Position numbers and translations under genes: made by a program
The notes under the pieces: model-generated
Databases searched by the model: none
Seen by the model: only the letters and a program-made list of their open reading frames with translations
What the model was told of the DNA's origin: nothing
Assembly: GCA_046483985.1 (NCBI GenBank)
Contig: JAWOCD010000110.1
Location: 32,001-96,000, forward strand
DNA from: Promethearchaeia archaeon
GTDB lineage: Archaea > Asgardarchaeota > Lokiarchaeia > Sigyniarchaeales > SOKP01
DNA: 64,000 bases
Reading direction: 5' to 3'
Shown here: positions 12,729-51,079 of the stretch, piece after piece
How positions within the stretch are numbered: position 1 is the stretch's first letter
Layout: every line of letters starts with the position of its first letter

Positions 12729-14633
12729 TTATATCCCTAATTTATCCCGATTAGTTTCTATATGGTCCATCATTGCGTCTACAGCATCTTCGGTATCCGT
12801 TTCCACATGTAGAATGCCGCCGGTAATATCTTTGCAACCTTCCGTTAGCAATTTAACCAAGTCCGGACCGCCAGTTACCGTTGGAATGGGATTTACATAG
12901 GTGTATAAGCCAAAAGCAAGCGCAAAAATGGCATCGATCGTCGCCTTTTGTTCCATATATTCGGGAGCAACTGCAACAATAGGTAAATCAGGTATAGAGA
13001 CTCCCCCCAAGGCATCAGAGACAGCACCTATAAGATCGGCAATCCTCCCAGTATCTGTACACGTGCCATAACTCAACACGGGCGGTATACCCAGTTTTTC
13101 GCAAAGCGCCTCAAGCCCCGGTCCAGCTAATTCCTTTGCTTCTGGAGAACATAATCCAGCAACTTGTAAGGCAGCATTTCCACACCCCATAGAAAGGACT
13201 AATATATCCCTTTTGATAAGTTCTTTTGTAATATCAACGGTATGCACATCTTGTCCCTTATCTCTTAGACTTGTACAAGAAACTAATCCCGCAATACCTT
13301 TTATTGTTCCTTCTTTAAGAGCATCTAGTAATGGCTCCAAAGATCCTCCAAGGGCTTCAAGGATGCTTTCTGTAGAGAATCCCACCATTGCTTCATTAGT
13401 TTCTAATCCAGATACTGGTTCAACTGTATTGTGTCGTTCCTCAAAGTTATCTAATGCCATTTGTAAAATTTTTCTTGCTTGATCTTCGGCCTTTTCTGGA
13501 ATATAGTCAACCCTCTCATCAATGCCCTCAAAAGAGACAACTTCACTTGCGGGAAGTAATTTAAACTTATATTTTTCTGCATAGATCGGATCAATTGGTA
13601 ATGAGCAGTTCATATCTGCGACAAATACGTCAACACACCCACTTGCTAGAATTGCTTCTTGCATTATCCAATTTCCTGTAAATCCATAAAATACATCATC
13701 CATTTCCCACCTTTGGATCATCTCTTGACCTGTTTCTATGTTTGCGATTATTCTCAATCCCTTCGCTCCAACTTCTTCCGCTTTTTCTTGCCATTTTGAT
13801 TTTCTCGCTTCTTGTACCAATGCAAACCCTAAGAAAGGCTCATGACCGTTGGGAAGCACATTTACATAATCAGGATCCAGGACTCCCAAATTAACCCTCA
13901 TATTATGGGGTTTGGGTATGTTAAACAAAATATCTTGGCAAAATTCATTAACAATTTGACTCTGATATGCCATTGTAATCCCCAATCTCATGGCCTTTAA
14001 TGCTAAACTTGCGTAATATCCATCAACATTCGTCAAACAAGAACTTGTCGAGAGCATCATTTCTCCATAAATTCCTCCTGGAAAAATATCTAACTTTTTC
14101 CATGCTTCTTGCCTTTCCTTTGGTGCTAATATTTCTACGATTTTACTATGTTCATGATAGGGACGATTGAAATCTTTCTCAACAAAGTCACACAATCTTA
14201 AGGCAACATCTACATCGGAACCAGATGTTTCTACCCCTAATCTTTCTGCAAAATCTTGTAATTTCTCCGGCTCGCTTATTTTATAAGGAGTGTTTCCTTT
14301 AGCTGTTGCCCTCAATGTCCTAATCGTCGTAGCTGTATGATATTGATACGTAGATGCCCCCATAATATTCCTTAAAAGCATCTTCCTCATTGCCATCCCA
14401 TCTGCGGTGATTCCACATACCCCTCGTTTATCTAATGACGCATCTGCTCGGCAAGGGCCGTTAGAACATAGATCACACCGAGCCCCCTTCATACAGTAAG
14501 AACATCGCTTATCGGGATCATCACCGAATCCTTGGGCTACATATCGATCCCAGACATTTATCATGCCATCATTTTTAATTCGATCATAGACTTTCTGAAC
14601 CGACTTATGGTAAGATATTCTTTCCTTTTCCAT
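12729..14633 (-). CDS. cooS: Ni-CODH catalytic subunit homologue, non-canonical (clade D-like)
   Basis: CDLCSNGPC..RGVCG (B cluster), NGHEP, DMNC, VSC, MGC, GTCTD, MEQKA. Confidence 0.9.
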   Translation of the reverse strand: MEKERISYHKSVQKVYDRIKNDGMINVWDRYVAQGFGDDPDKRCSYCMKGARCDLCSNGPCRADASLDKRGVCGITADGMAMRKMLLRNIMGASTYQYHTATTIRTLRATAKGNTPYKISEPEKLQDFAERLGVETSGSDVDVALRLCDFVEKDFNRPYHEHSKIVEILAPKERQEAWKKLDIFPGGIYGEMMLSTSSCLTNVDGYYASLALKAMRLGITMAYQSQIVNEFCQDILFNIPKPHNMRVNLGVLDPDYVNVLPNGHEPFLGFALVQEARKSKWQEKAEEVGAKGLRIIANIETGQEMIQRWEMDDVFYGFTGNWIMQEAILASGCVDVFVADMNCSLPIDPIYAEKYKFKLLPASEVVSFEGIDERVDYIPEKAEDQARKILQMALDNFEERHNTVEPVSGLETNEAMVGFSTESILEALGGSLEPLLDALKEGTIKGIAGLVSCTSLRDKGQDVHTVDITKELIKRDILVLSMGCGNAALQVAGLCSPEAKELAGPGLEALCEKLGIPPVLSYGTCTDTGRIADLIGAVSDALGGVSIPDLPIVAVAPEYMEQKATIDAIFALAFGLYTYVNPIPTVTGGPDLVKLLTEGCKDITGGILHVETDTEDAVDAMMDHIETNRDKLGI

Positions 14634-30201: not shown

Positions 30202-31614
30202 TTATTTGATATGAAAACTCCGTAATTCTTTCAAAATGACGGGCTCTGATTTGTCTATCTCCGAGATATCTTCTTCTGTTCCCACGATGACCGCGCCCTT
30301 TGTCCCAAAACTACCGAGAATTTTCGTAAAGGGAGCTTCCAGTTCTCTCCCGGTAATTTCTTTCGCTCCCTTGACACTTTGAGCTAATCCTTCACAAACT
30401 ATCCCTTCAGAATGCTCTAAATATTTGATTCGCCCTTTCTTATACTTGTATTTGTAGAATAATGGCGCTTGTTCGTGGGTTTTCAAAAGATTTGCTGATC
30501 CGATTATCCGCAAGGTGGTTGGGGGGAGGTCCAATCGGCTTAATAAGAATATGACTTTATTTTTTGGAATTAATATCCGCTTGTTAAACCGAAGAATAGC
30601 CCGAAATTTAGATTGGGTCTGAGAAATGGACTTTTTCAACCGTTTCCCCTCAATCTCTTTATAAGGATAAATATTAGCCACATCTGTTTCCATTCCAATA
30701 GTGACGTGCACTTGCGTTCCAAATTCTGTTTTTGGTTTGAAATGCTCCGTTTTATTCACAATAACTTCCGCAATAGTGCAGAATTCAAACGCGTTTTTAT
30801 TATCAGTTACATATGTTCCTCGGTAGACCTTATCAATGTCAATATTTTTGATATTAACCCCTACTCGATTACCTGCCTCGGCAAAATCAACATCCTCGTG
30901 AAAGATTTGGATGTTTTTAACTTTTCCGGTTTCATTTATAGGGAGTATGTAGACCTGTTGATCTTTTTTCAGCGTTCCCGTAATTAGCGTTCCCGTAATG
31001 ATCGGTCCTAAACCTTTTGCGGTAAAGTGGTGATCAATCGGAATGATCACATCTCCGTCTGTATCTCTGTCGATTTCTAACGATTTAATCAGATCGAAGA
31101 TTCCTTCTTTTAACTCTGTGAATCCTTTTTTTTCTTTTGCTGAAACAGCAAAAATGGGAACATTCTTGCCAAATGAAGTAGTTTTAAAGAATTCTTGAAT
31201 GTTTTCGATTTCTTTTTCAATATTGCCCTTGAATAGATCTATCTTATTTAAGACCACGATGATGTTTTCAATTCCTAAGGATTCGATCATGACTAAGTGC
31301 TCTCCAGTCTGAATCTGCGGCCCTTTGTTGATATCTATTACTAATAGTGCACAGTCAATTATTTCCACCGATGATGCGCTAATTTTAATTAAATCTGCAT
31401 GCCCAGGTCCGTCTACAAGCGTAATTAAATACTCATCCATAAGAAAACTGGTGAATCCGATATCAATAGTTATTCCCCGTTCCTTACTCTGTGGATGAGC
31501 ATCGATTCCTGCCGTAGAGATAATCTCGGACAATACTGAGGCAACTGCTGTTTTGCCGGAGTCAATATGACCAAATAACCCAAAGTTGATAGGAATTTTT
31601 TCTTCGATATTCAT
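30202..31614 (-). CDS. selB: Selenocysteine-specific elongation factor (archaeal/eukaryotic type)
   Basis: GHIDSGKT, ERGITIDIGF, DGPGH, NKID, DHHF; C-terminal domain with SFGTKG; near tRNA-Sec. Confidence 0.9.
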   Translation of the reverse strand: MNIEEKIPINFGLFGHIDSGKTAVASVLSEIISTAGIDAHPQSKERGITIDIGFTSFLMDEYLITLVDGPGHADLIKISASSVEIIDCALLVIDINKGPQIQTGEHLVMIESLGIENIIVVLNKIDLFKGNIEKEIENIQEFFKTTSFGKNVPIFAVSAKEKKGFTELKEGIFDLIKSLEIDRDTDGDVIIPIDHHFTAKGLGPIITGTLITGTLKKDQQVYILPINETGKVKNIQIFHEDVDFAEAGNRVGVNIKNIDIDKVYRGTYVTDNKNAFEFCTIAEVIVNKTEHFKPKTEFGTQVHVTIGMETDVANIYPYKEIEGKRLKKSISQTQSKFRAILRFNKRILIPKNKVIFLLSRLDLPPTTLRIIGSANLLKTHEQAPLFYKYKYKKGRIKYLEHSEGIVCEGLAQSVKGAKEITGRELEAPFTKILGSFGTKGAVIVGTEEDISEIDKSEPVILKELRSFHIK

Positions 31615-31740
31615 CTTAACTACTAATTATAATTAACCAATAAATAAAATCTTACAAAATTGGACTCACAAAATTTAATTAATTTAAATTTGATTTTAAT
31701 AATAACAACAAGATTAATAATGTTTTGAGGATTAAAAAAT

Positions 31741-32592
31741 ATGACTCGACATTGCCCGTATTGCGGGGAGCCAGTCAAAGATGATGATAAATTTTGTATA
31801 TCGTGCGGAAAACCTCTTATTTCCAACATTCCTTCCGAAGATAAGATAAACGAGAAGGAAAAGAAGAAGCAAAAAGAAGAAGAAACAAAAAGGGATAAAG
31901 AGGAGAAAGAAGAGGAGAAAAAAGAAAAAAAGAAAAATGAGAAAAAAGCAGACGAAGAGAAGAAAGAGGAAGAAGAGGATTTACCCGAATTACCAGAAGA
32001 GATTAAACAACAAGTAGAATATCGCCTTGATTTAAACAGGCTAAAGATCACTAAACAAAAACTGGGTAGAAAATTAGAGAAAATTGAAAAAGCAATGGAG
32101 GGAAATAAATACGATGTAGACGATGAATATGCTCAAAAAATAAACTCGCAGTTACAAGCTATAAAAGAGATCTCCAACGATCTAAAAGAAAAAGAACGGT
32201 CAATCGAAAGTAAGATTGATAAACCCTTTATTACGGAACAATTGAATTTTGAAATTGACACCAAAAAAGACCAATTAAAAAGCATTGTGAGGGATTATAA
32301 ACTCAAAAAATTAAAAAAATTCGCAATGAAGGACTTGAAGAAGCAATACAAAAAGGAGCTTAAAGATCTCAGAAAAAAGAAGGAAAATATCATTACCAAT
32401 ATAGAAAAATGGCTGGCAGAAATTTCAATGAAAAAGACCAAATTGAAGAAAGAACTTGAATATGAAAAGGCAAAATTTTCCGCGAAAGAGATTTCGGAGG
32501 AAGAGTACGAAAGAAGCAAAAAGGACTTCAAAAAAGATATGAAACTCGTTGAGTTGAATATTGAGACGCTCAAAGACTTAACATCTAAATAA
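31741..32592 (+). CDS. Zinc-ribbon + long coiled-coil protein
   Basis: CPYCG..FCISCG then K/E-rich helical region. Confidence 0.75.
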   Translation: MTRHCPYCGEPVKDDDKFCISCGKPLISNIPSEDKINEKEKKKQKEEETKRDKEEKEEEKKEKKKNEKKADEEKKEEEEDLPELPEEIKQQVEYRLDLNRLKITKQKLGRKLEKIEKAMEGNKYDVDDEYAQKINSQLQAIKEISNDLKEKERSIESKIDKPFITEQLNFEIDTKKDQLKSIVRDYKLKKLKKFAMKDLKKQYKKELKDLRKKKENIITNIEKWLAEISMKKTKLKKELEYEKAKFSAKEISEEEYERSKKDFKKDMKLVELNIETLKDLTSK

Positions 32593-32658
32593 TCCAAGCA
32601 CAAATAATTAAAATAATAATTAATTTCAATATCTATATATAAATAAAGAGCTGTTTAT

Positions 32659-32781
32659 ATGAGAAAAAGAATAACCACATTTATCCTATTTTTACTCTCA
32701 TTATCTTTATTAACTTTGGGCATAATTGAAGTGCAGTATAATTTGATAAACAAATTTTATCAAAAAATGGCGGCTTTTTAA
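32659..32781 (+). CDS. Putative small single-TM protein (40 aa); not in ORF track
   Basis: MRKRITTFILFLLSLSLLTLGIIEVQYNLINKFYQKMAAF; TATATA upstream. Confidence 0.5.
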   Translation: MRKRITTFILFLLSLSLLTLGIIEVQYNLINKFYQKMAAF

Positions 32782-32825
32782 TTAAGTTTTACACCTATTT
32801 TTAAAATAAGAAATGAATAAATGAA

Positions 32826-33131
32826 TTATTCGCCTAACCAGCGTCCCGTTTCTCGAGAAGATTCATCATTTAGAAAACCCTTTTTCTGATATAATTTTTC
32901 GTCAGATTTTTTAATCTTTTTGGCTTGCTTATAGTGTTTTTTGCAGAGATATATCTTATGGTGTCGATTCTCGGCATAATCCAATTTCGCCTTTTTTGCA
33001 TAGGGACCCCATTTATTTTCGGATAATGACCGAATTGCTTTTTTGGAACACCCTTTTATAGAACATCGCTTTGTTTTACCAGATGCTCTTTTCAATTCTC
33101 GCTTTTCTCGTAATTCTTTAGGCAGTTTCAA
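32826..33131 (-). CDS. Small basic Zn-binding protein (Cx4C...CxxH)
   Basis: RCSIKGCSKKAIRSLS...IYLCKKHYK. Confidence 0.7.
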   Translation of the reverse strand: MKLPKELREKRELKRASGKTKRCSIKGCSKKAIRSLSENKWGPYAKKAKLDYAENRHHKIYLCKKHYKQAKKIKKSDEKLYQKKGFLNDESSRETGRWLGE

Positions 33132-33214
33132 TTGACTCAGACCTCGAATAAAAACTTTAAGATTTATTATAAATTACTAAATACAATAAAGCTTAAAATT
33201 TTTTTGAAAATTGT

Positions 33215-33952
33215 ATGCCCCCTGACTCATTAATCTTTGATAAATCAGAAATTCAAAGGAAACTATTTGCCCTTGATTCCCCCAAACGGATCAAATTAAA
33301 GGGTGATGAGTTTTTTACAAAATCAGCGATATTATTTACCATTATTCGGAATGATACTCATCCTTACAAACTCCTTTTGATTCATAGGACGGATAGAGGG
33401 ACAAAACATCGTAATGAGATTTCATTTCCCGGGGGAAGACATGAACCTGAGACGGACGTCTCTCTCATTGATACCGCAATTCGAGAAGCCATGGAGGAAA
33501 TTGGAGTCTCAAGGACGGATGTTGAAATATTAGGATGTATGCACGATTTTCCCACATTAACTCGATATATCATCACCCCAATAATTGGCGTAATCAATAA
33601 AAATCAGAGATTTTGCAAGCAAGAGACCGAAGTAAGGAGGATTCTTAAAATTCCAATCGATTACTTTGCAGATAAGCACAATTTTAATGAACGACTTTTC
33701 ATAATCAATCATAAAAAGTTTCCCGTATATTATTACAATTATTTTGATGAGGTTCAAAAGAGAATATATACTATTTGGGGGGCGACAGCTCATATGATCC
33801 AAGAATTTCTCCATCATATTTATTCTGTTCAGTTATCTGAATCGGGTATTAAAAGATTCACCATTGAAAAAATAAAAAACTTGAAGAATAATCTCAAATT
33901 CAAGAGAAAACTATCAAACGGATTTAACCCTCAAAAAGATAAACAAAAATGA
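33215..33952 (+). CDS. Nudix CoA pyrophosphatase (NUDT7/NudL-like)
   Basis: HRNEISFPGG, TAIREAMEEIG, IWGATA. Confidence 0.88.
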   Translation: MPPDSLIFDKSEIQRKLFALDSPKRIKLKGDEFFTKSAILFTIIRNDTHPYKLLLIHRTDRGTKHRNEISFPGGRHEPETDVSLIDTAIREAMEEIGVSRTDVEILGCMHDFPTLTRYIITPIIGVINKNQRFCKQETEVRRILKIPIDYFADKHNFNERLFIINHKKFPVYYYNYFDEVQKRIYTIWGATAHMIQEFLHHIYSVQLSESGIKRFTIEKIKNLKNNLKFKRKLSNGFNPQKDKQK

Positions 33953-34611
33953 AAGAAGCGTTAATCCTTGATGAGGAGAAAATAAAAAACCGGTTGTATA
34001 ATTTTGAGGATTCAAAACGTCCTTGTTTTGATGATGCTCGATTTATTAAATCTGCGGTTATAATTCCCGTAATCTCTTATCCCGATAAACCCTTTGAAAT
34101 CCTATTTATAAAAAGAACTATTCATAAGGAGGATAAACACTCGGGGGAAATGGCATTTCCAGGAGGTAAATACGATCCTCAAGTGGATAAAAATCTTAAA
34201 GAAACTGCATTAAGAGAAACAGAGGAAGAAATAGGTATTTTTGAATCGAATATTTCCGTATTGGGATGCTTGAAGGACCAGATTACCCCCAAAAAGTTCA
34301 TTATTACCCCTTTTATTGCAATTATAGAGAACAATGTTCAATTCTTGAGCGACAATGCTGAGGTGGCTGAAATTATAAAAATTCCGATTAATTATTTTCT
34401 GAATGGAAAAAATTATTTAGAAAGGACGTATACTTTAAAGAATACGCTTATAGCGGTCGGTAAGTATAAATATTGGCATACTAACGGAAAAAAATACGTC
34501 ATTTTTGGAGCTTCTTGTCATATTCTCGTTGATTTTATTGAAACCATCTACCAGATTAACTTAATGAACAAAAAAGCTCGAAGATTGCAATGTGCTGATT
34601 TTTCTAAATAA
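33949..34611 (+). CDS. Nudix CoA pyrophosphatase (tandem paralog)
   Basis: HSGEMAFPGG, TALRETEEEIG, IFGAS. Confidence 0.88.
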   Translation: MKEALILDEEKIKNRLYNFEDSKRPCFDDARFIKSAVIIPVISYPDKPFEILFIKRTIHKEDKHSGEMAFPGGKYDPQVDKNLKETALRETEEEIGIFESNISVLGCLKDQITPKKFIITPFIAIIENNVQFLSDNAEVAEIIKIPINYFLNGKNYLERTYTLKNTLIAVGKYKYWHTNGKKYVIFGASCHILVDFIETIYQINLMNKKARRLQCADFSK

Positions 34612-34767
34612 ATACGTAATATTTTAAACTGAGAAGGAAATTAAACAATTTATAAAGCTAATTTACATATATATCCTTTTTTGACTTTTATTAAAAATTA
34701 ATAAAAAACAATTACTATCCAAATCACTATTTAATAAAATAAAAAATTATAAGATGGTAAAAATAAA

Positions 34768-35349
34768 ATGACTGCTGATAGCGAACTTGCAAACCCTGCC
34801 CCTCTAGGGCTGATGGGATTTGGTATGACCACAGTGCTTTTAAATCTGCATAATGCAGGGTTATTCCAATTAGACACGATGATTCTAGCGATGGGAATAT
34901 TTTATGGTGGTTTAGCCCAAGTAATAGCTGGTATATTAGAATATAAAAAAGGGAATACATTTGGAGTGACTGCCTTTACATCATATGGCTTCTTTTGGTT
35001 ATCTTTCGTTTTTCTAAATGTTCTACCAAACCTTGGATATTGGTCTGTAGAAGTTTCTTCAGTTTCGGATGGTTGGTATTTGTTCATGTGGGGTATTTTC
35101 TCATGCTTTATGTTTATAGGGACTTTAAAAAGCAATAGAGCATTACAGTTTGTTTTTCTTTCTGTATCTTTATTGTTTTTAATTCTCGCAGCCTCGAAGT
35201 TTTTGAATTCCTCTCTCATTGGCACCATCGGGGGAATCGAAGGTATAATCTCTGGCTCCAGCGCAATTTATTTAGCGATGGCAGAAGTTATAAATGAATC
35301 GCATGATAAAACAATATTACCAATCGGCGAACCTTCAGAAAGAGATTAA
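34768..35349 (+). CDS. satP: Acetate uptake transporter (GPR1/FUN34/YaaH)
   Basis: ANPAPLGLMGFGMTT, FYGGLAQ, SYGFFW. Confidence 0.93.
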   Translation: MTADSELANPAPLGLMGFGMTTVLLNLHNAGLFQLDTMILAMGIFYGGLAQVIAGILEYKKGNTFGVTAFTSYGFFWLSFVFLNVLPNLGYWSVEVSSVSDGWYLFMWGIFSCFMFIGTLKSNRALQFVFLSVSLLFLILAASKFLNSSLIGTIGGIEGIISGSSAIYLAMAEVINESHDKTILPIGEPSERD

Positions 35350-35498
35350 ATATTAAAACGACCACGAAGAAATAAAAAAAGAATACAATTATTTTTCTCA
35401 TTTTTTTCTCATTTCTTTTATTTTTCAAGACTAAAGAGATTTCCCGCCATCCTTGATCTTACATCTTATGCATGCGTTTCTTTTTCCTCTCGATATAT

Positions 35499-35526
35499 TT
35501 TAACGATCTGCGAAAGAAGTCCCCAT
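35499..35526. repeat. 28-bp dispersed repeat, copy 1
   Basis: TTTAACGATCTGCGAAAGAAGTCCCCAT, identical at 56996-57023. Confidence 0.85.
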
Positions 35527-35636
35527 TTTCATTTAATTTGAAATTATGAATTAAAATCGAAAATTTCTTTTACAATTTTTGATTATTAAGGATGAGAATT
35601 TTTGATAGTATATCAGTTCAAAAATTCAATTAATAA

Positions 35637-35729
35637 GGCCCTTGACGGTCGGAGTGGTCTCTGACGCCAGACTTCAAATCTGGTTATCCTGCGGAGGGAT
35701 AGGGGTTCGATTCCCCTCGAGGGCCGCCA
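35637..35729 (+). tRNA. selC: tRNA-Sec (anticodon UCA), 9/4 cloverleaf
   Basis: 9-bp acceptor GGCCCTTGA/TCGAGGGCC, 7-bp D stem, CCAGA-CTTCAAA-TCTGG, long variable arm, 4-bp T stem, G73 and encoded CCA. Confidence 0.96.
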
Positions 35730-35771
35730 TTTTACCTTGATATGAATAAATAACTATGTGTTGTCCTAATT

Positions 35772-37142
35772 ATGGTTGATTTAAGTAAGATAAATAAATA
35801 TTTCGAAAACTCGAAAATCCCCAAAAATATGCTCAAACGGGGTCAGCTTGTTTTGAATGAATTCTTGAAACCCATTAAAATCCTTTTCGAACAAAAGGCA
35901 CTTCCTGATGAGCCATGGAGTCAAGAGCAAATCAAATATTTGTTAGATACGCTTTCCCATATGGATACGGATAAGGACAGAAAGGCCGCCCGGGTGGGCG
36001 AACGGGAAGCACGAATTGCCTCGAAACTTAATCTAGAGATCTCAGCTGGCTTCTGTCATGGAATAGGTCGAAGTGGATTTTTAACTGATCCCCAACCGAA
36101 AGCTCCTGGGGGGTCCATCATGTATGATATTGCAAACTACGTTGCGCGTGACTTTTTACGAAAATTTGGATTGCCCAATATCAAAAAAGCAATTGTTGTG
36201 CCTATTGCAACTGGTATGTCTTTAGCTCTTTGTTTAGCCGCATTGCGTCCCGATTGGGATAATGGTTCTCTGCTTCATAAGAGAAAGATTTTGGTCCCCC
36301 GAATTGACCATAAATCCCTCATCAAGGGGATCAAATTGGTTGGAGTTACTCCAAAAATAATCGATGGGAGGATTTTCGGAGATAGTGTCCGTGTTCCTAT
36401 AGAAGATATTAAGGAGGCATTTGACGAGGACTGTTTTGGTATTATATCTGTTACCAGCTTTTTTCCCCCGAGAGAGCATGACGCCCTCAAGAAAATAAGT
36501 AAATTCGCCAAAAAGAAAGATTTATGTCACATTGTTATTAATGCCTACGGAGTACAGAGTCCAGAGTGGATGAAATTGATTCGCTCCGCTATCGATGCGG
36601 GACGAGTGGATGCCATTATTCAATCTACGGACAAAAATGTATTGACTCCCGTAGGCGGAGCAGTTATTGCCTCTCCCTCGAAAAAAGTTATTGACACTAT
36701 AAGTCAAACATATGCCGGACGTGCTTCTGCCACTCCCGTGGTAAATTTTCTCGTTTCTATTCTTTCTTTAGGAAAGCAAGGATATGAAGAACTAATAGAC
36801 AAACAGCAACGACATCATAATTTACTCAGGAAAAAACTACAAAAATTCGCCGAAGAAATCGATGAACGGATCTTGGATACATTTAATCCTGTAGCTATCG
36901 CTATGACTTTAAATCATCTGCCAGAGGAAAAGTTAACTCAATTAGGTGGAGCGCTCTATAATTTGAGGGTAACGGGACCGAGGGTCTATAATCCAGATGA
37001 AAAAATGTTCGGATTTTGTTGTGAAGATTATCCGTATCCCTATATCGTTATGAATGCGGCAATAGGCTCCCGCAAATCGGACATTTTAACCGCAATAGAG
37101 CGACTTAAAAAAGCCTATGCTCAAGTTAAAAAAACCTCCTAA
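35772..37142 (+). CDS. spcS: O-phosphoseryl-tRNA(Sec) selenium transferase SepSecS
   Basis: GEREAR, HGIGRSG, QPKAPG, NAYG, QSTDKN (PLP Lys), YAGRAS; follows tRNA-Sec. Confidence 0.95.
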   Translation: MVDLSKINKYFENSKIPKNMLKRGQLVLNEFLKPIKILFEQKALPDEPWSQEQIKYLLDTLSHMDTDKDRKAARVGEREARIASKLNLEISAGFCHGIGRSGFLTDPQPKAPGGSIMYDIANYVARDFLRKFGLPNIKKAIVVPIATGMSLALCLAALRPDWDNGSLLHKRKILVPRIDHKSLIKGIKLVGVTPKIIDGRIFGDSVRVPIEDIKEAFDEDCFGIISVTSFFPPREHDALKKISKFAKKKDLCHIVINAYGVQSPEWMKLIRSAIDAGRVDAIIQSTDKNVLTPVGGAVIASPSKKVIDTISQTYAGRASATPVVNFLVSILSLGKQGYEELIDKQQRHHNLLRKKLQKFAEEIDERILDTFNPVAIAMTLNHLPEEKLTQLGGALYNLRVTGPRVYNPDEKMFGFCCEDYPYPYIVMNAAIGSRKSDILTAIERLKKAYAQVKKTS

Positions 37143-38320: not shown

Positions 38321-38439
38321 ATAAAAAAATTTTTATTCTTTTGTGTGTTTTGATTGAATATAGAAGATTTTAATACAAAATTGGTATAATGTCATATAGG
38401 GGATTTTTCCCTTAAAATAATGGATTATATCAATGCAGT

Positions 38440-38594
38440 GGTCCCGTTGCTTAGCTTGGTTAACATGCCCAGGTTTTTGAGCTTGGTCAACAAGCGCAGG
38501 TCTTATAAATGGCCCGCGGACATACAAAGAAACCAAATAAGTGTCCGTGTTCAGTAAAAACCTGAGATCCCGGGTTCAAATCCCGGCGGGACCA
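38440..38594 (+). tRNA. tRNA-Ile (anticodon UAU) with two BHB introns (about 38463-38491 and 38509-38559)
   Basis: Acceptor GGTCCCG/CGGGACC + A73; D stem GCTT/AAGC; anticodon arm CAGGT-CTTATAA-ACCTG after splicing; T arm CCGGG-TTCAAAT-CCCGG. Confidence 0.88.
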
Positions 38595-38784
38595 TGTTCT
38601 TTCTTTTCTTTTGGTAACAAAGCATTTCGATGTAATTTTTTACCAATGATTAGAAATTTTAAGGAATAAAATCAACTAAATAATAATAACTAAAAAAATT
38701 TAATAGTACTGGGTTGTATAAAGTTAGTATAAATACTATTAAAAAACATACTTAAATTTACTAACATTTAATAAGTGACTATTT

Positions 38785-48435: not shown

Positions 48436-48480
48436 GACTGTAAGGTATACAATCTTTTGTTTTTCTTTTTTTTATTTTAT

Positions 48481-48563
48481 GCATCAGTCGCCTAGTGGTA
48501 TGGCGCTAGCTTGGAGAGCTAGTGCGCGTATAGCGCTCGTGGGTTCGAATCCCATCTGATGCG
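48481..48563 (+). tRNA. tRNA-Ser (GGA)
   Basis: GCATCAG/CTGATGC + G73; CTAGC-TTGGAGA-GCTAG; long variable arm; GTGGG-TTCGAAT-CCCAT. Confidence 0.95.
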
Positions 48564-48800
48564 TTCAATTCATCTATACACTCGCTTAAAGTTATGGAAG
48601 AAGTTTTAATTAAAAATCCCCCATGCCATCCTCATCAAACTCCGCCTCTTCCACGTGCGTTCCAACTGTACGGTCTCTGGGGGGAATCAGATTTCTTATT
48701 ATATATATCTTGATTTCAATTTTTATTAGCAAACCTTGTCTGGAGCTGGTTTTTTTGAAAATTGAAAAGTAGAAAAAATTAAAAAATCCTAATTCTCTAG

Positions 48801-49609: not shown

Positions 49610-51079
49610 TCAGCCTAATCCAAGAAAACCGCGCATTCCGGGATACTGCTCAGCAGCTGCTTCCTTGCTGATCGTTTCGGCATATTGGTGCATAATCTCT
49701 ACACCTAAAAGCAAACCTGTTCCTGAAGAGAGTGCGCCTAATCCGTCTGCGAAGAAACTTAATATAGCGAGTACTATACCATTCAAAATCACAAGCATCG
49801 GAATATAACGCTTTAAAATCCGTTCGATAATCTTCTCAGATTGCCGAAAACCTGGTACTTGCATCCCACTATCGAGAATTTGTCCTGCAATATCACGAGG
49901 GGCTAGTCCGCTTACTTCTACCCATATCTGACCTAATTTCACACAGAGGACGACAAGTATTACAAAGTAAATGCCGGCACGTATCGGATCTCCAGTGAGT
50001 TGATCCAATCCCTGGGGCGCAGTAAGGAGATAGATTAATCCCGATTTCGGCGTAAGCTGGCTCCCAAGCCCAGTTCCTGCACTACTTGCCTCAAATGTCC
50101 CTATAAGATCTATCCAGAAATCGTACCCCTGACCCCGCAACGCTGATCTGGGTCCTGCTAGTAATTGCCCGAAGAATAAGATGTTTGCATATAATGCGTG
50201 CACTAATATAACTGGAATTACGGACACATAAAAAAATTTGATGGGGTATTTCCCCTTAAAACCCCGATATCCAGCATATTGCAGTGGTAGTTCGATTCTC
50301 ATACTTATAAACCATATAACACCAAGAAAAATGATAATTGTTGTAATTACTCCTAAAAGAGAGGGCAATCCGGCTTCTCTGATAAAGAGATCTCCTATCC
50401 TAGTGTTTGAGTCCCCATCAAATAAAGCTGTGAAAAACGCAATGAAAATTCCCCTTTGTAATCCCCTTTCTCCTGCTTCAATAAAACTAAAAGAATTCCA
50501 GAAAATTTGACCGGCAACTCCTGCCGCAATGAAGAGGGACACACCGCTCCCTAATCCCCACCCTTTCTGTAAGGTTTCATCAAGCAATATAATAATAATA
50601 CCTGCAAATAGGAGCTGCAGAAAGATGAGCACAACGTTTTGTAATCCTAATTGTGTTACGTTCCCGAAGGCTCCCCCCAGAATATACGCAAGTGAATTGA
50701 AAATAGTGAGAAAGATTGCCAATACTTTTTGGGAACCACTAAACATGGAACGATCGTAAGGGTCATTCATGTCGACATCTATCATTTTACTCCCGTTCAG
50801 AAGTTGCATGATAAGTCCCGCAGTTACAATTGGTCCAATACCAAGCTCAGTAAGTGTTCCGCGCTCGCTTGCCAAAATGACCCGAAGCGAATAAAAATAA
50901 TCTGTTGATTCCTCAAGTTGGATTCCGTATAAAGGAATGTTTGACATAATTAAATATATAACTAAGACAACCGCAGTCCAGATAAACTTTTCTTTAAATG
51001 CTACTTCCCGTTGCGGTTGCTTAACTTCTGGCATTACCCGTACAAAGGGGGATAATGCCTTTAGGAACTTCCCAGCCAT
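49610..51079 (-). CDS. secY: Preprotein translocase SecY/Sec61alpha
   Basis: GTLTELGIGPIVTAG, GWGLGSGVSLFI, PIKFFYVS, VPGFR. Confidence 0.97.
   Translation of the reverse strand: MAGKFLKALSPFVRVMPEVKQPQREVAFKEKFIWTAVVLVIYLIMSNIPLYGIQLEESTDYFYSLRVILASERGTLTELGIGPIVTAGLIMQLLNGSKMIDVDMNDPYDRSMFSGSQKVLAIFLTIFNSLAYILGGAFGNVTQLGLQNVVLIFLQLLFAGIIIILLDETLQKGWGLGSGVSLFIAAGVAGQIFWNSFSFIEAGERGLQRGIFIAFFTALFDGDSNTRIGDLFIREAGLPSLLGVITTIIIFLGVIWFISMRIELPLQYAGYRGFKGKYPIKFFYVSVIPVILVHALYANILFFGQLLAGPRSALRGQGYDFWIDLIGTFEASSAGTGLGSQLTPKSGLIYLLTAPQGLDQLTGDPIRAGIYFVILVVLCVKLGQIWVEVSGLAPRDIAGQILDSGMQVPGFRQSEKIIERILKRYIPMLVILNGIVLAILSFFADGLGALSSGTGLLLGVEIMHQYAETISKEAAAEQYPGMRGFLGLG

Follow-up and report, generated by a model that had tools for sequence, protein, structure and literature searches.

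The window and the tRNA-Ile(UAU) gene

The window is the whole 64,000-nucleotide stretch of DNA that was analysed. It comes from a genome of 4.06 Mb in 128 contigs (97% complete, 4.8% contamination), which we call the source genome (G000). The Rfam tRNA model RF00005 matches window positions 38440-38594 on the plus strand at 44.8 bits (gathering score, 29). The matched gene sits between two ORFs, and its alignment to the model contains a D-loop insert of 36 nt and a 52-nt insert that follows CUUAUA. ARAGORN did not call the unspliced gene. When both introns were removed in silico, a 75-nt cloverleaf with all stems paired was obtained, and ARAGORN identified it as tRNA-Ile(tat). When the D intron alone was removed, ARAGORN itself detected a 51-nt intron in the anticodon loop. 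The spliced tRNA has the loop CUUAUAA and the discriminator A73. By direct reading, the arms are intact: the acceptor stem is GGTCCCG/CGGGACC, the T arm is CCGGG-TTCAAAT-CCCGG, the D stem is GCTT/AAGC and the anticodon stem is CAGGT/ACCTG. The CCA end is not encoded in the gene. The parts of the locus are as follows.

38412..38419, plus strand: TATA-like A/T-rich box (TTAAAATA), lying 21-28 nt 5' of the first tRNA position (direct reading)
38440..38462, plus strand: exon 1, with the acceptor 5' strand, U8, the D-stem 5' strand and the D loop to A21 (Rfam alignment, orthologues without the D intron, in-silico splice)
38463..38491, plus strand: intron 1, in the D loop at 21/22, 29 nt (strict hBHBh', direct reading, alignment A3)
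38492..38508, plus strand: exon 2, with the D-stem 3' strand, G26, the anticodon-stem 5' strand and the loop CUUAUAA (Rfam alignment, in-silico splice)
38504..38506, plus strand: anticodon TAT (UAU), positions 34-36 (ARAGORN call after in-silico splicing; no variation among 50 distinct orthologues)
38509..38559, plus strand: intron 2, in the anticodon loop at 37/38 or 38/39, 51 nt (folds, in-silico splice)
38515..38549, plus strand: hairpin of intron 2 with a 9-bp stem, 38515-38523 paired with 38541-38549 (MFE folds of 17 orthologues)
38524-38526, plus strand: conserved ACA at the start of the hairpin loop of intron 2
38560..38594, plus strand: exon 3, with the anticodon-stem 3' strand, the 5-nt variable loop, the T arm, the acceptor 3' strand and A73 (Rfam, in-silico splice)
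38595..38616, plus strand: T-rich tract 3' of the gene (direct reading)

Boxes resembling TTTATAAAAT are present upstream of orthologues at a comparable distance, and we infer a promoter role for the box at 38412..38419. The T-rich tract is likely to be an archaeal terminator. A scan of the locus for bacterial-type terminators found nothing; bacterial-type promoter and terminator scans are uninformative for an archaeon. UAU results from any splice by which five or more bases of the loop are kept from its 5' side. The sole alternative 7-nt loop that can be obtained has a UAA anticodon, and it was rejected as a misfit with the 5-nt variable loop.

Other features of the window are given below. 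A selenocysteine cluster occupies window positions 30202-37142; its genes precede tRNA-Ile(UAU) by approximately 1.3-8 kb.

12729-14633, minus strand: CODH/prismane gene
30202-31614, minus strand: archaeal SelB (selenocysteine cluster)
35637-35729, plus strand: tRNA-Sec (Rfam, 61 bits)
35772-37142, plus strand: SepSecS (selenocysteine cluster)
48480-48564: ordinary, intron-less tRNA-Ser(GGA)
49610-51079, minus strand: SecY

Structures of the two introns

The D-loop intron has a strict bulge-helix-bulge (BHB) structure that can be read directly from the gene. The central helix TGGT/GTCA is flanked by the bulges TAA and ACA, with GCT/AGC forming the outer helix; there is also an inner helix. Cleavage after the second bulge base releases an intron at 38463-38491 and leaves the mature D loop AGCUUGGUUA. 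This cleavage rule was checked on the canonical intron of tRNA-Pro(GGG) from the same genome. Five orthologues do not possess the D intron, and their D arms end in GGTYA|AAGC, which is the junction predicted by the BHB rule. When the gene was aligned with four orthologues without the D intron (alignment A3), the D intron appeared as a single clean insertion of 29 columns. Because the intron-less orthologues show exactly the predicted junction, the splice junctions in the D loop are confirmed.

The 5' side of the anticodon-loop intron is canonical. U33-U36 (TTAT) are paired with GTAA near the 3' end of the intron, and this helix is followed by the 3-nt bulge AAA, TGG/TCA, a CC bulge and the 9-bp stem CGCGGACAT/GTGTCCGTG. 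The 3' splice site has a relaxed form, in which C32 faces two A's and a clean 3-nt bulge is not formed. The run of A's allows the junction to be placed at 37/38 or 38/39, with an identical product either way. All 17 orthologues that were folded retain the 5' bulge and the 4-bp helix, and in each of them the TTAT helix is fully paired. The source genome encodes a catalytic domain of EndA (PF01974, 100 bits, G000:C32:38560-38793) within an ORF of 202 aa.

The original prediction had described an isoleucine tRNA with a UAU anticodon after removal of two introns, and ARAGORN arrived at the same tRNA on the spliced sequence. The claimed 29-nt intron at 21/22, with its TGGT/GTCA helix and TAA and ACA bulges, agrees with the strict hBHBh' structure and with the intron-less orthologues. 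For the claimed intron of about 51 nt in the anticodon loop, the TTAT/GTAA helix, the 5' AAA bulge and the 9-bp stem were found, but the second bulge of the claim gave way to the relaxed 3' site.

We also considered a reading of the anticodon-loop intron as an H/ACA guide RNA. This reading was rejected: the stem does not possess an internal pocket, and the ACA opens the terminal loop and does not lie 3' of the hairpin. The Rfam search of the tRNA-Ile(UAU) locus found no H/ACA family at E <= 1. It should be mentioned that the TGRCC segment of the intron could pair with GGUC of the anticodon stem; an alternative hairpin with the anticodon in an 8-nt loop would then be formed.

Conservation of the gene and of the anticodon-loop intron

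By BLAST, an orthologue including the introns was found in 23 of 24 genomes from the same family. In a wider BLAST sample, orthologues were found in 73 of 91 family genomes; the query for this count was 112 nt of the gene from genome G011 plus 13 nt of its 3' flank, and the matches span the anticodon and the intron. The exact 13-mer GCRGGTCTTATAA around the anticodon occurs in 54/61 family genomes, and the control with the reversed pattern was almost empty. Judged from these searches, the tRNA-Ile(UAU) feature is far beyond chance. In the pattern search, matches of GCRGGTCTTATAA in family f2 and on contig C94 of the source genome were discarded as chance hits. When CTTATAANTGRCC was searched outside the family with one mismatch allowed, the count did not exceed that of the control, and a ribosomal-protein gene accounted for the match that recurred there.

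Among 50 distinct orthologues, all 50 keep the loop CUUAUAA and the anticodon intron, which is mostly 44-60 nt long. The anticodon intron is also retained in the UAU genes of genomes G032, G038, G155 and G026. The introns of the D region are more variable in number (0, 1 or 2), and some orthologues carry extra introns in the T loop or variable region, up to four introns in one gene. The exons are near-invariant across the 50 orthologues and several families. The stem of the anticodon intron covaries among 17 orthologues, all of which fold to the same stem; for example, one pair is CG in 7, TA in 8 and TG in 2, and another is GC in 14 and AT in 3. The motif N-TGRCC-NNN-GGACA-N-ACA is kept in 43-48 of the 50 distinct introns (GGACA-N-ACA in 43-46), with free variation in the rest of the loop. 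Other families have a different stem sequence, yet their loop still opens with CAUACA or ACA.

A covariance model (R1) was built from seven orthologues. In the source genome, R1 gave 128.5 bits for the UAU gene and 56 bits for the next tRNA, and the gene is present as a single copy. With R1, UAU genes were also detected in three further lineages of the order: genus g8, family f2 (two complete genomes) and family f3. In the genes from genus g8, the anticodon stem is CTGGT.

The Trp(CCA) and Pro(GGG) tRNA genes of the source genome were used as intron controls, with a threshold of E <= 1e-8 in 24 family genomes. For Trp(CCA) a match was obtained in 1/24 genomes and for Pro(GGG) in 5/24, and three of the five Pro matches cover the 5' exon only. 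The Pro(GGG) orthologues of two relatives do not possess any anticodon intron. At the same threshold, UAU orthologues were found in 16/24 genomes, and most of the alignments run through the intron. By this comparison the anticodon intron of tRNA-Ile(UAU) is conserved far more than neighbouring tRNA introns, of which those of the Pro and Trp genes turn over. Because both the motif and the retention of the intron are conserved, the intron is under a constraint for which recognition of the BHB would not by itself obviously account.

At window positions 38510-38526 and in the orthologues, unpaired bases (the CC bulge in TGRCC and N-ACA) are conserved well beyond the presumed need of EndA.

Isoleucine and CAU tRNAs

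The other isoleucine tRNA of the source genome has a GAU anticodon (G000:C50:58164-58267). It shares with the UAU tRNA a common D arm and A73, and the D-loop introns of the two genes lie at about the same place. The acceptor stems of the two tRNAs differ. The tRNA-Ile(GAU) has an unusual T loop, ATCGAAG, and one UAU orthologue possesses the same T loop.

The tRNA census of the source genome relied on scans with three kinds of anchor: the T arm with the acceptor stem, the 5' half, and the anticodon arm. Looser scans gave mostly false positives. The census yielded about 46 tRNAs. Ala-UGC and Arg-CCG, both of which are expected, were not recovered. In this incomplete census, the CAU genes found are an initiator tRNA-Met (C37:91378-91511) and one elongator (C24:61353-61519). 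The genome-wide search with RF00005, in which 150 of 253 candidates were scored, missed the tRNA-Ile(UAU) gene.

We searched four complete or near-complete Asgard genomes that possess TiaS with R1. Among the 20 best R1 matches, there was no UAU tRNA. In three of the four genomes, the best matches include an additional CAU tRNA whose acceptor stem is Ile-like. A fifth TiaS-positive genome (G075) gave no R1 match at the threshold.

In genus g8, the tRNA-Ile(GAU) genes carry a 20-nt insert in the anticodon loop. Depending on where the insert is cut, the loop becomes CUGAUAA (GAU) or CUUAUAA (UAU), and by eye the insert shows no clear BHB. The two genes are the following.

G007:C27:104008-104102 (L124): g8 tRNA-Ile(GAU) gene with the insert
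G155:C2:369031-369125 (L126): g8 tRNA-Ile(GAU) gene with the insert

TiaS is missing from the family

Decoding of AUA without misreading of AUG has been solved in several ways. Bacteria use lysidine, and most archaea use agmatidine, which TiaS forms at C34 of tRNA-Ile2(CAU). Eukaryotes use inosine together with an intron-containing tRNA-Ile(UAU).

We searched for the kinase domain of TiaS (TiaS_TCKD, PF22641). In the source genome there was no match. In the source family (f1), PF22641 was found in 0/91 genomes, each of which is at least 80% complete, and in family f2 in 0/9 genomes. Among 40 relatives, 39 were without a match. The same search was positive in 4/4 archaeal control genomes. Across the sampled Asgard genomes, PF22641 was found in 158/301, and other families reach, for example, 63/71, 25/27 and 19/19. 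The loss of tiaS that the original prediction had singled out for a check was borne out by this absence from the source genome and its family. For the TiaS_FLD domain, a single sub-threshold signal of 16.5-18 bits was obtained in the source genome, at the N-terminus of an ORF of 486 aa (G000:C29). This ORF was not accepted as TiaS. A TCKD domain is lacking, NCBIfam gave no match, and the E value of the ORF in BLASTP against a genuine Asgard TiaS was 0.03.

In the order outside the source family, where the UAU gene recurs, the kinase domain was found in one sampled genome only. In this genome (G026, 66% complete), a UAU tRNA-Ile gene coexists with an ORF of 387 aa that matches TiaS_TCKD at 45 bits.

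G026:C52:8403-8553 (L125): UAU tRNA-Ile gene
G026:C79:19227-19409 (L002): TiaS_TCKD match

Because G026 has both, TiaS and the UAU tRNA are not strictly exclusive. This co-occurrence may reflect a transitional state, or else an artefact of binning.

Usage and meaning of AUA codons

In 1469 long ORFs of the source genome, AUA is used 21.7 times per 1000 codons. It accounts for 24.5% of the isoleucine codons and is about as frequent as AUG. The meaning of AUA was examined with the CODH gene in the window, which has 15 ATA sites. In 119 homologues, the residues at these sites are isoleucine in 75% and methionine in 0.3%. The ATT and ATC sites of the gene show a pattern like that of the ATA sites, and at the ATG sites methionine accounts for 82%. 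The CODH gene has homologues of 77-88% identity, and those with names are mostly from Promethearchaeota or Lokiarchaeota. It should be mentioned that the homologues used for this test are mostly Asgard proteins translated by the standard code. However, ATT or ATC should be the codon for about three quarters of their isoleucine residues. Because the ATA sites align with isoleucine and not with methionine, AUA means isoleucine.

A probable UAU-based decoder of AUA

The UAU anticodon, the missing TiaS, the frequent AUA codons that mean isoleucine and the contrast between CAU and UAU tRNAs together make it very probable that AUA is read by tRNA-Ile(UAU). Because TiaS is missing, the usual archaeal route is gone in the family. 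Therefore, the UAU tRNA would be the main, and probably the only, decoder of AUA. Our best reading is that a UAU-based decoder replaces TiaS and tRNA-Ile2(CAU), and we hold with considerable confidence that positions 38440-38594 encode the precursor of this decoder in a TiaS-less family of Loki-type Asgard archaea. In living cells, EndA and a ligase would excise the 29-nt D-loop intron and the 51-nt anticodon-loop intron. The mature 75-nt tRNA would then be charged by IleRS and would read AUA, and some modification of U34 or other adaptation would limit the misreading of AUG. A whole family of Loki-type Asgard archaea has dropped TiaS and, on this reading, depends on an intron-bearing UAU tRNA.

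An alternative, which we regard as improbable, would assign AUA chiefly to a CAU tRNA with a C34 modification made by some enzyme not related to TiaS; the UAU tRNA would then have a minor or redundant role. A third CAU gene could have been overlooked by the incomplete census, and in G026 the UAU tRNA stands alongside a TiaS-like match. However, an initiator and one elongator are the only CAU genes found in the source genome, and the family keeps the UAU gene almost universally with TiaS in none of its 91 genomes. Furthermore, the extra Ile-like CAU gene occurs in three of the four TiaS-positive genomes, where the best matches include no UAU tRNA.

Two further explanations seem to us very improbable. 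The gene might be a decaying or unprocessed relic from which no working tRNA is made; ARAGORN does not call it unspliced, and its 3' splice site is relaxed. Against this, the spliced product is a perfect cloverleaf, the exons hardly vary and the intron stem shows covariation in 50 distinct orthologues and several families, and a quarter of the isoleucine codons are AUA and need a reader. Alternatively, the UAU tRNA might be charged with another amino acid (for example, methionine), AUA having been reassigned in the lineage. Its acceptor stem is indeed unlike that of tRNA-Ile(GAU), but A73 and the D arm match the latter, and isoleucine prevails over methionine at the ATA sites just as at the ATT and ATC sites; this second scenario is as hard to credit as the first. 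Because ARAGORN overlooks this essential gene, AUA would be left without a reader in the genome annotation.

Comparison with known UAU-based systems

A UAU tRNA-Ile in the absence of TiaS has been described in Nanoarchaeum equitans and Candidatus Korarchaeum cryptofilum (PMC3919564; PMC6000648). The Korarchaeum gene contains an intron and resembles tRNA-Ile(GAU) from its own genome (PMC3919564; PMC6000648). The system described here is like these two in having an archaeal UAU isoleucine tRNA without TiaS, and like that of Korarchaeum in having an intron and a resemblance to tRNA-Ile(GAU). It differs from them in that it occurs in Loki-type Asgard archaea, possesses two introns (up to four in orthologues) and is a trait of a whole family or order. 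Moreover, both the sequence and the structure of the anticodon intron are conserved from family to family.

In ARMAN-2, -4 and -5, the pre-tRNA-Ile(UAU) has a 25-nt intron at 37/38 with a strict hBHBh' structure, which is cut by EndA in vitro (PMC3239211). ARMAN possess neither TiaS nor tRNA-Ile(CAU) (PMC3239211). The UAU anticodon, the intron at 37/38 and the absence of TiaS are common to ARMAN and the source genome. In contrast, the intron in the source genome is 51 nt long with a relaxed 3' site, and a second intron is present in the D loop.

To our knowledge, eukaryotic cytosolic tRNA-Ile(UAU) always contains an intron. In yeast, Pus1 makes the pseudouridines at positions 34 and 36 solely on the intron-containing precursor. 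The psi-A-psi anticodon of the eukaryotic tRNA is mentioned in PMC6000648 and PMC8879553. The Asgard tRNA is like its eukaryotic counterpart in the UAU anticodon and in an anticodon-adjacent intron that pairs with the anticodon and was never lost among the orthologues examined. However, its partner isoleucine tRNA has GAU, not AAU or IAU, and splicing would follow the archaeal BHB rule. The original prediction spoke of eukaryote-style decoding of AUA. This description suits the UAU anticodon and the retained adjacent intron; it does not suit the GAU partner, and a UAU strategy had already been published for Nanoarchaeum, Korarchaeum and ARMAN.

In the literature search, we found no paper that reports UAU-based decoding of AUA for Asgard archaea, and neither TiaS with Asgard nor agmatidine with Lokiarchaeota was found together in any paper. 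Loki-type Asgard archaea are hereby added to the known decoders of AUA that are UAU-based and independent of TiaS.

A possible link between the intron and anticodon modification

The conserved ACA of the intron is located 18-20 nt 3' of U34, and the bulge of the 5' splice site is 14-16 nt upstream of the ACA. An intron-linked modification of the anticodon is a reasonable hypothesis, which the unusual conservation of the intron would support. In one form of this hypothesis, the intron would be a functional element that, through its hairpin, the ACA and the conserved TGRCC element, recruits a modification enzyme to the precursor. This enzyme might be a pseudouridine synthase with a PUA domain (for example, Cbf5) or a different enzyme that modifies the anticodon, and U34 and/or U36 would be modified before splicing so that reading of AUG is blocked. 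We consider this form rather unlikely. Asgard archaea are relatives of the eukaryotic ancestor. If this form were true, the Asgard system would be an archaeal forerunner of the eukaryotic intron-dependent psi-A-psi tRNA-Ile. Because the intron is conserved far above neighbouring tRNA introns, a pre-eukaryotic intron-dependent modification of the anticodon may now be put forward as a concrete and testable hypothesis.

Interrupted tRNA genes in the source genome

Asgard tRNA genes have been described as heavily interrupted, with D-arm introns that are missed by tRNAscan-SE and with frequent intron gain (10.64898/2026.10.13.758758). Ile, UAU, TiaS and AUA are not mentioned in this preprint. The gene described here resembles those genes in having several BHB introns, including a D-arm intron missed by standard finders, and the source genome also possesses tRNA introns in the T loop and anticodon stem. 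In contrast to the frequent intron gain reported there, the anticodon intron of tRNA-Ile(UAU) is stably retained.

Several other tRNA genes of the source genome are unusual. The tRNA-Phe(GAA) gene (G000:C24:66556-66748, plus strand) has approximately four apparent inserts, located in the D loop, the 5' strand of the anticodon stem, the T stem and the T loop. It was missed by ARAGORN, by the Rfam-based genome search and by most scans, and was recovered by a special scan only. The genes for Lys-UUU, Thr-CGU and Ala-GGC tRNAs possess T-loop introns of about 37 nt with similar sequences (…AAGATTATCCGTTTCGGGTAAATT…), and this similarity hints at intron copying between tRNA genes.

G000:C37:41308-41411: Lys-UUU tRNA gene with a T-loop intron
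G000:C37:40035-40136: Thr-CGU tRNA gene with a T-loop intron
G000:C99:45532-45665: Ala-GGC tRNA gene with a T-loop intron

Furthermore, a tRNA-like element of 100 nt is present at G000:C56:8115-8214 on the minus strand. Its T arm is perfect and its acceptor stem has 7 bp, but the 5' half is atypical and a long hairpin lies inside the element.
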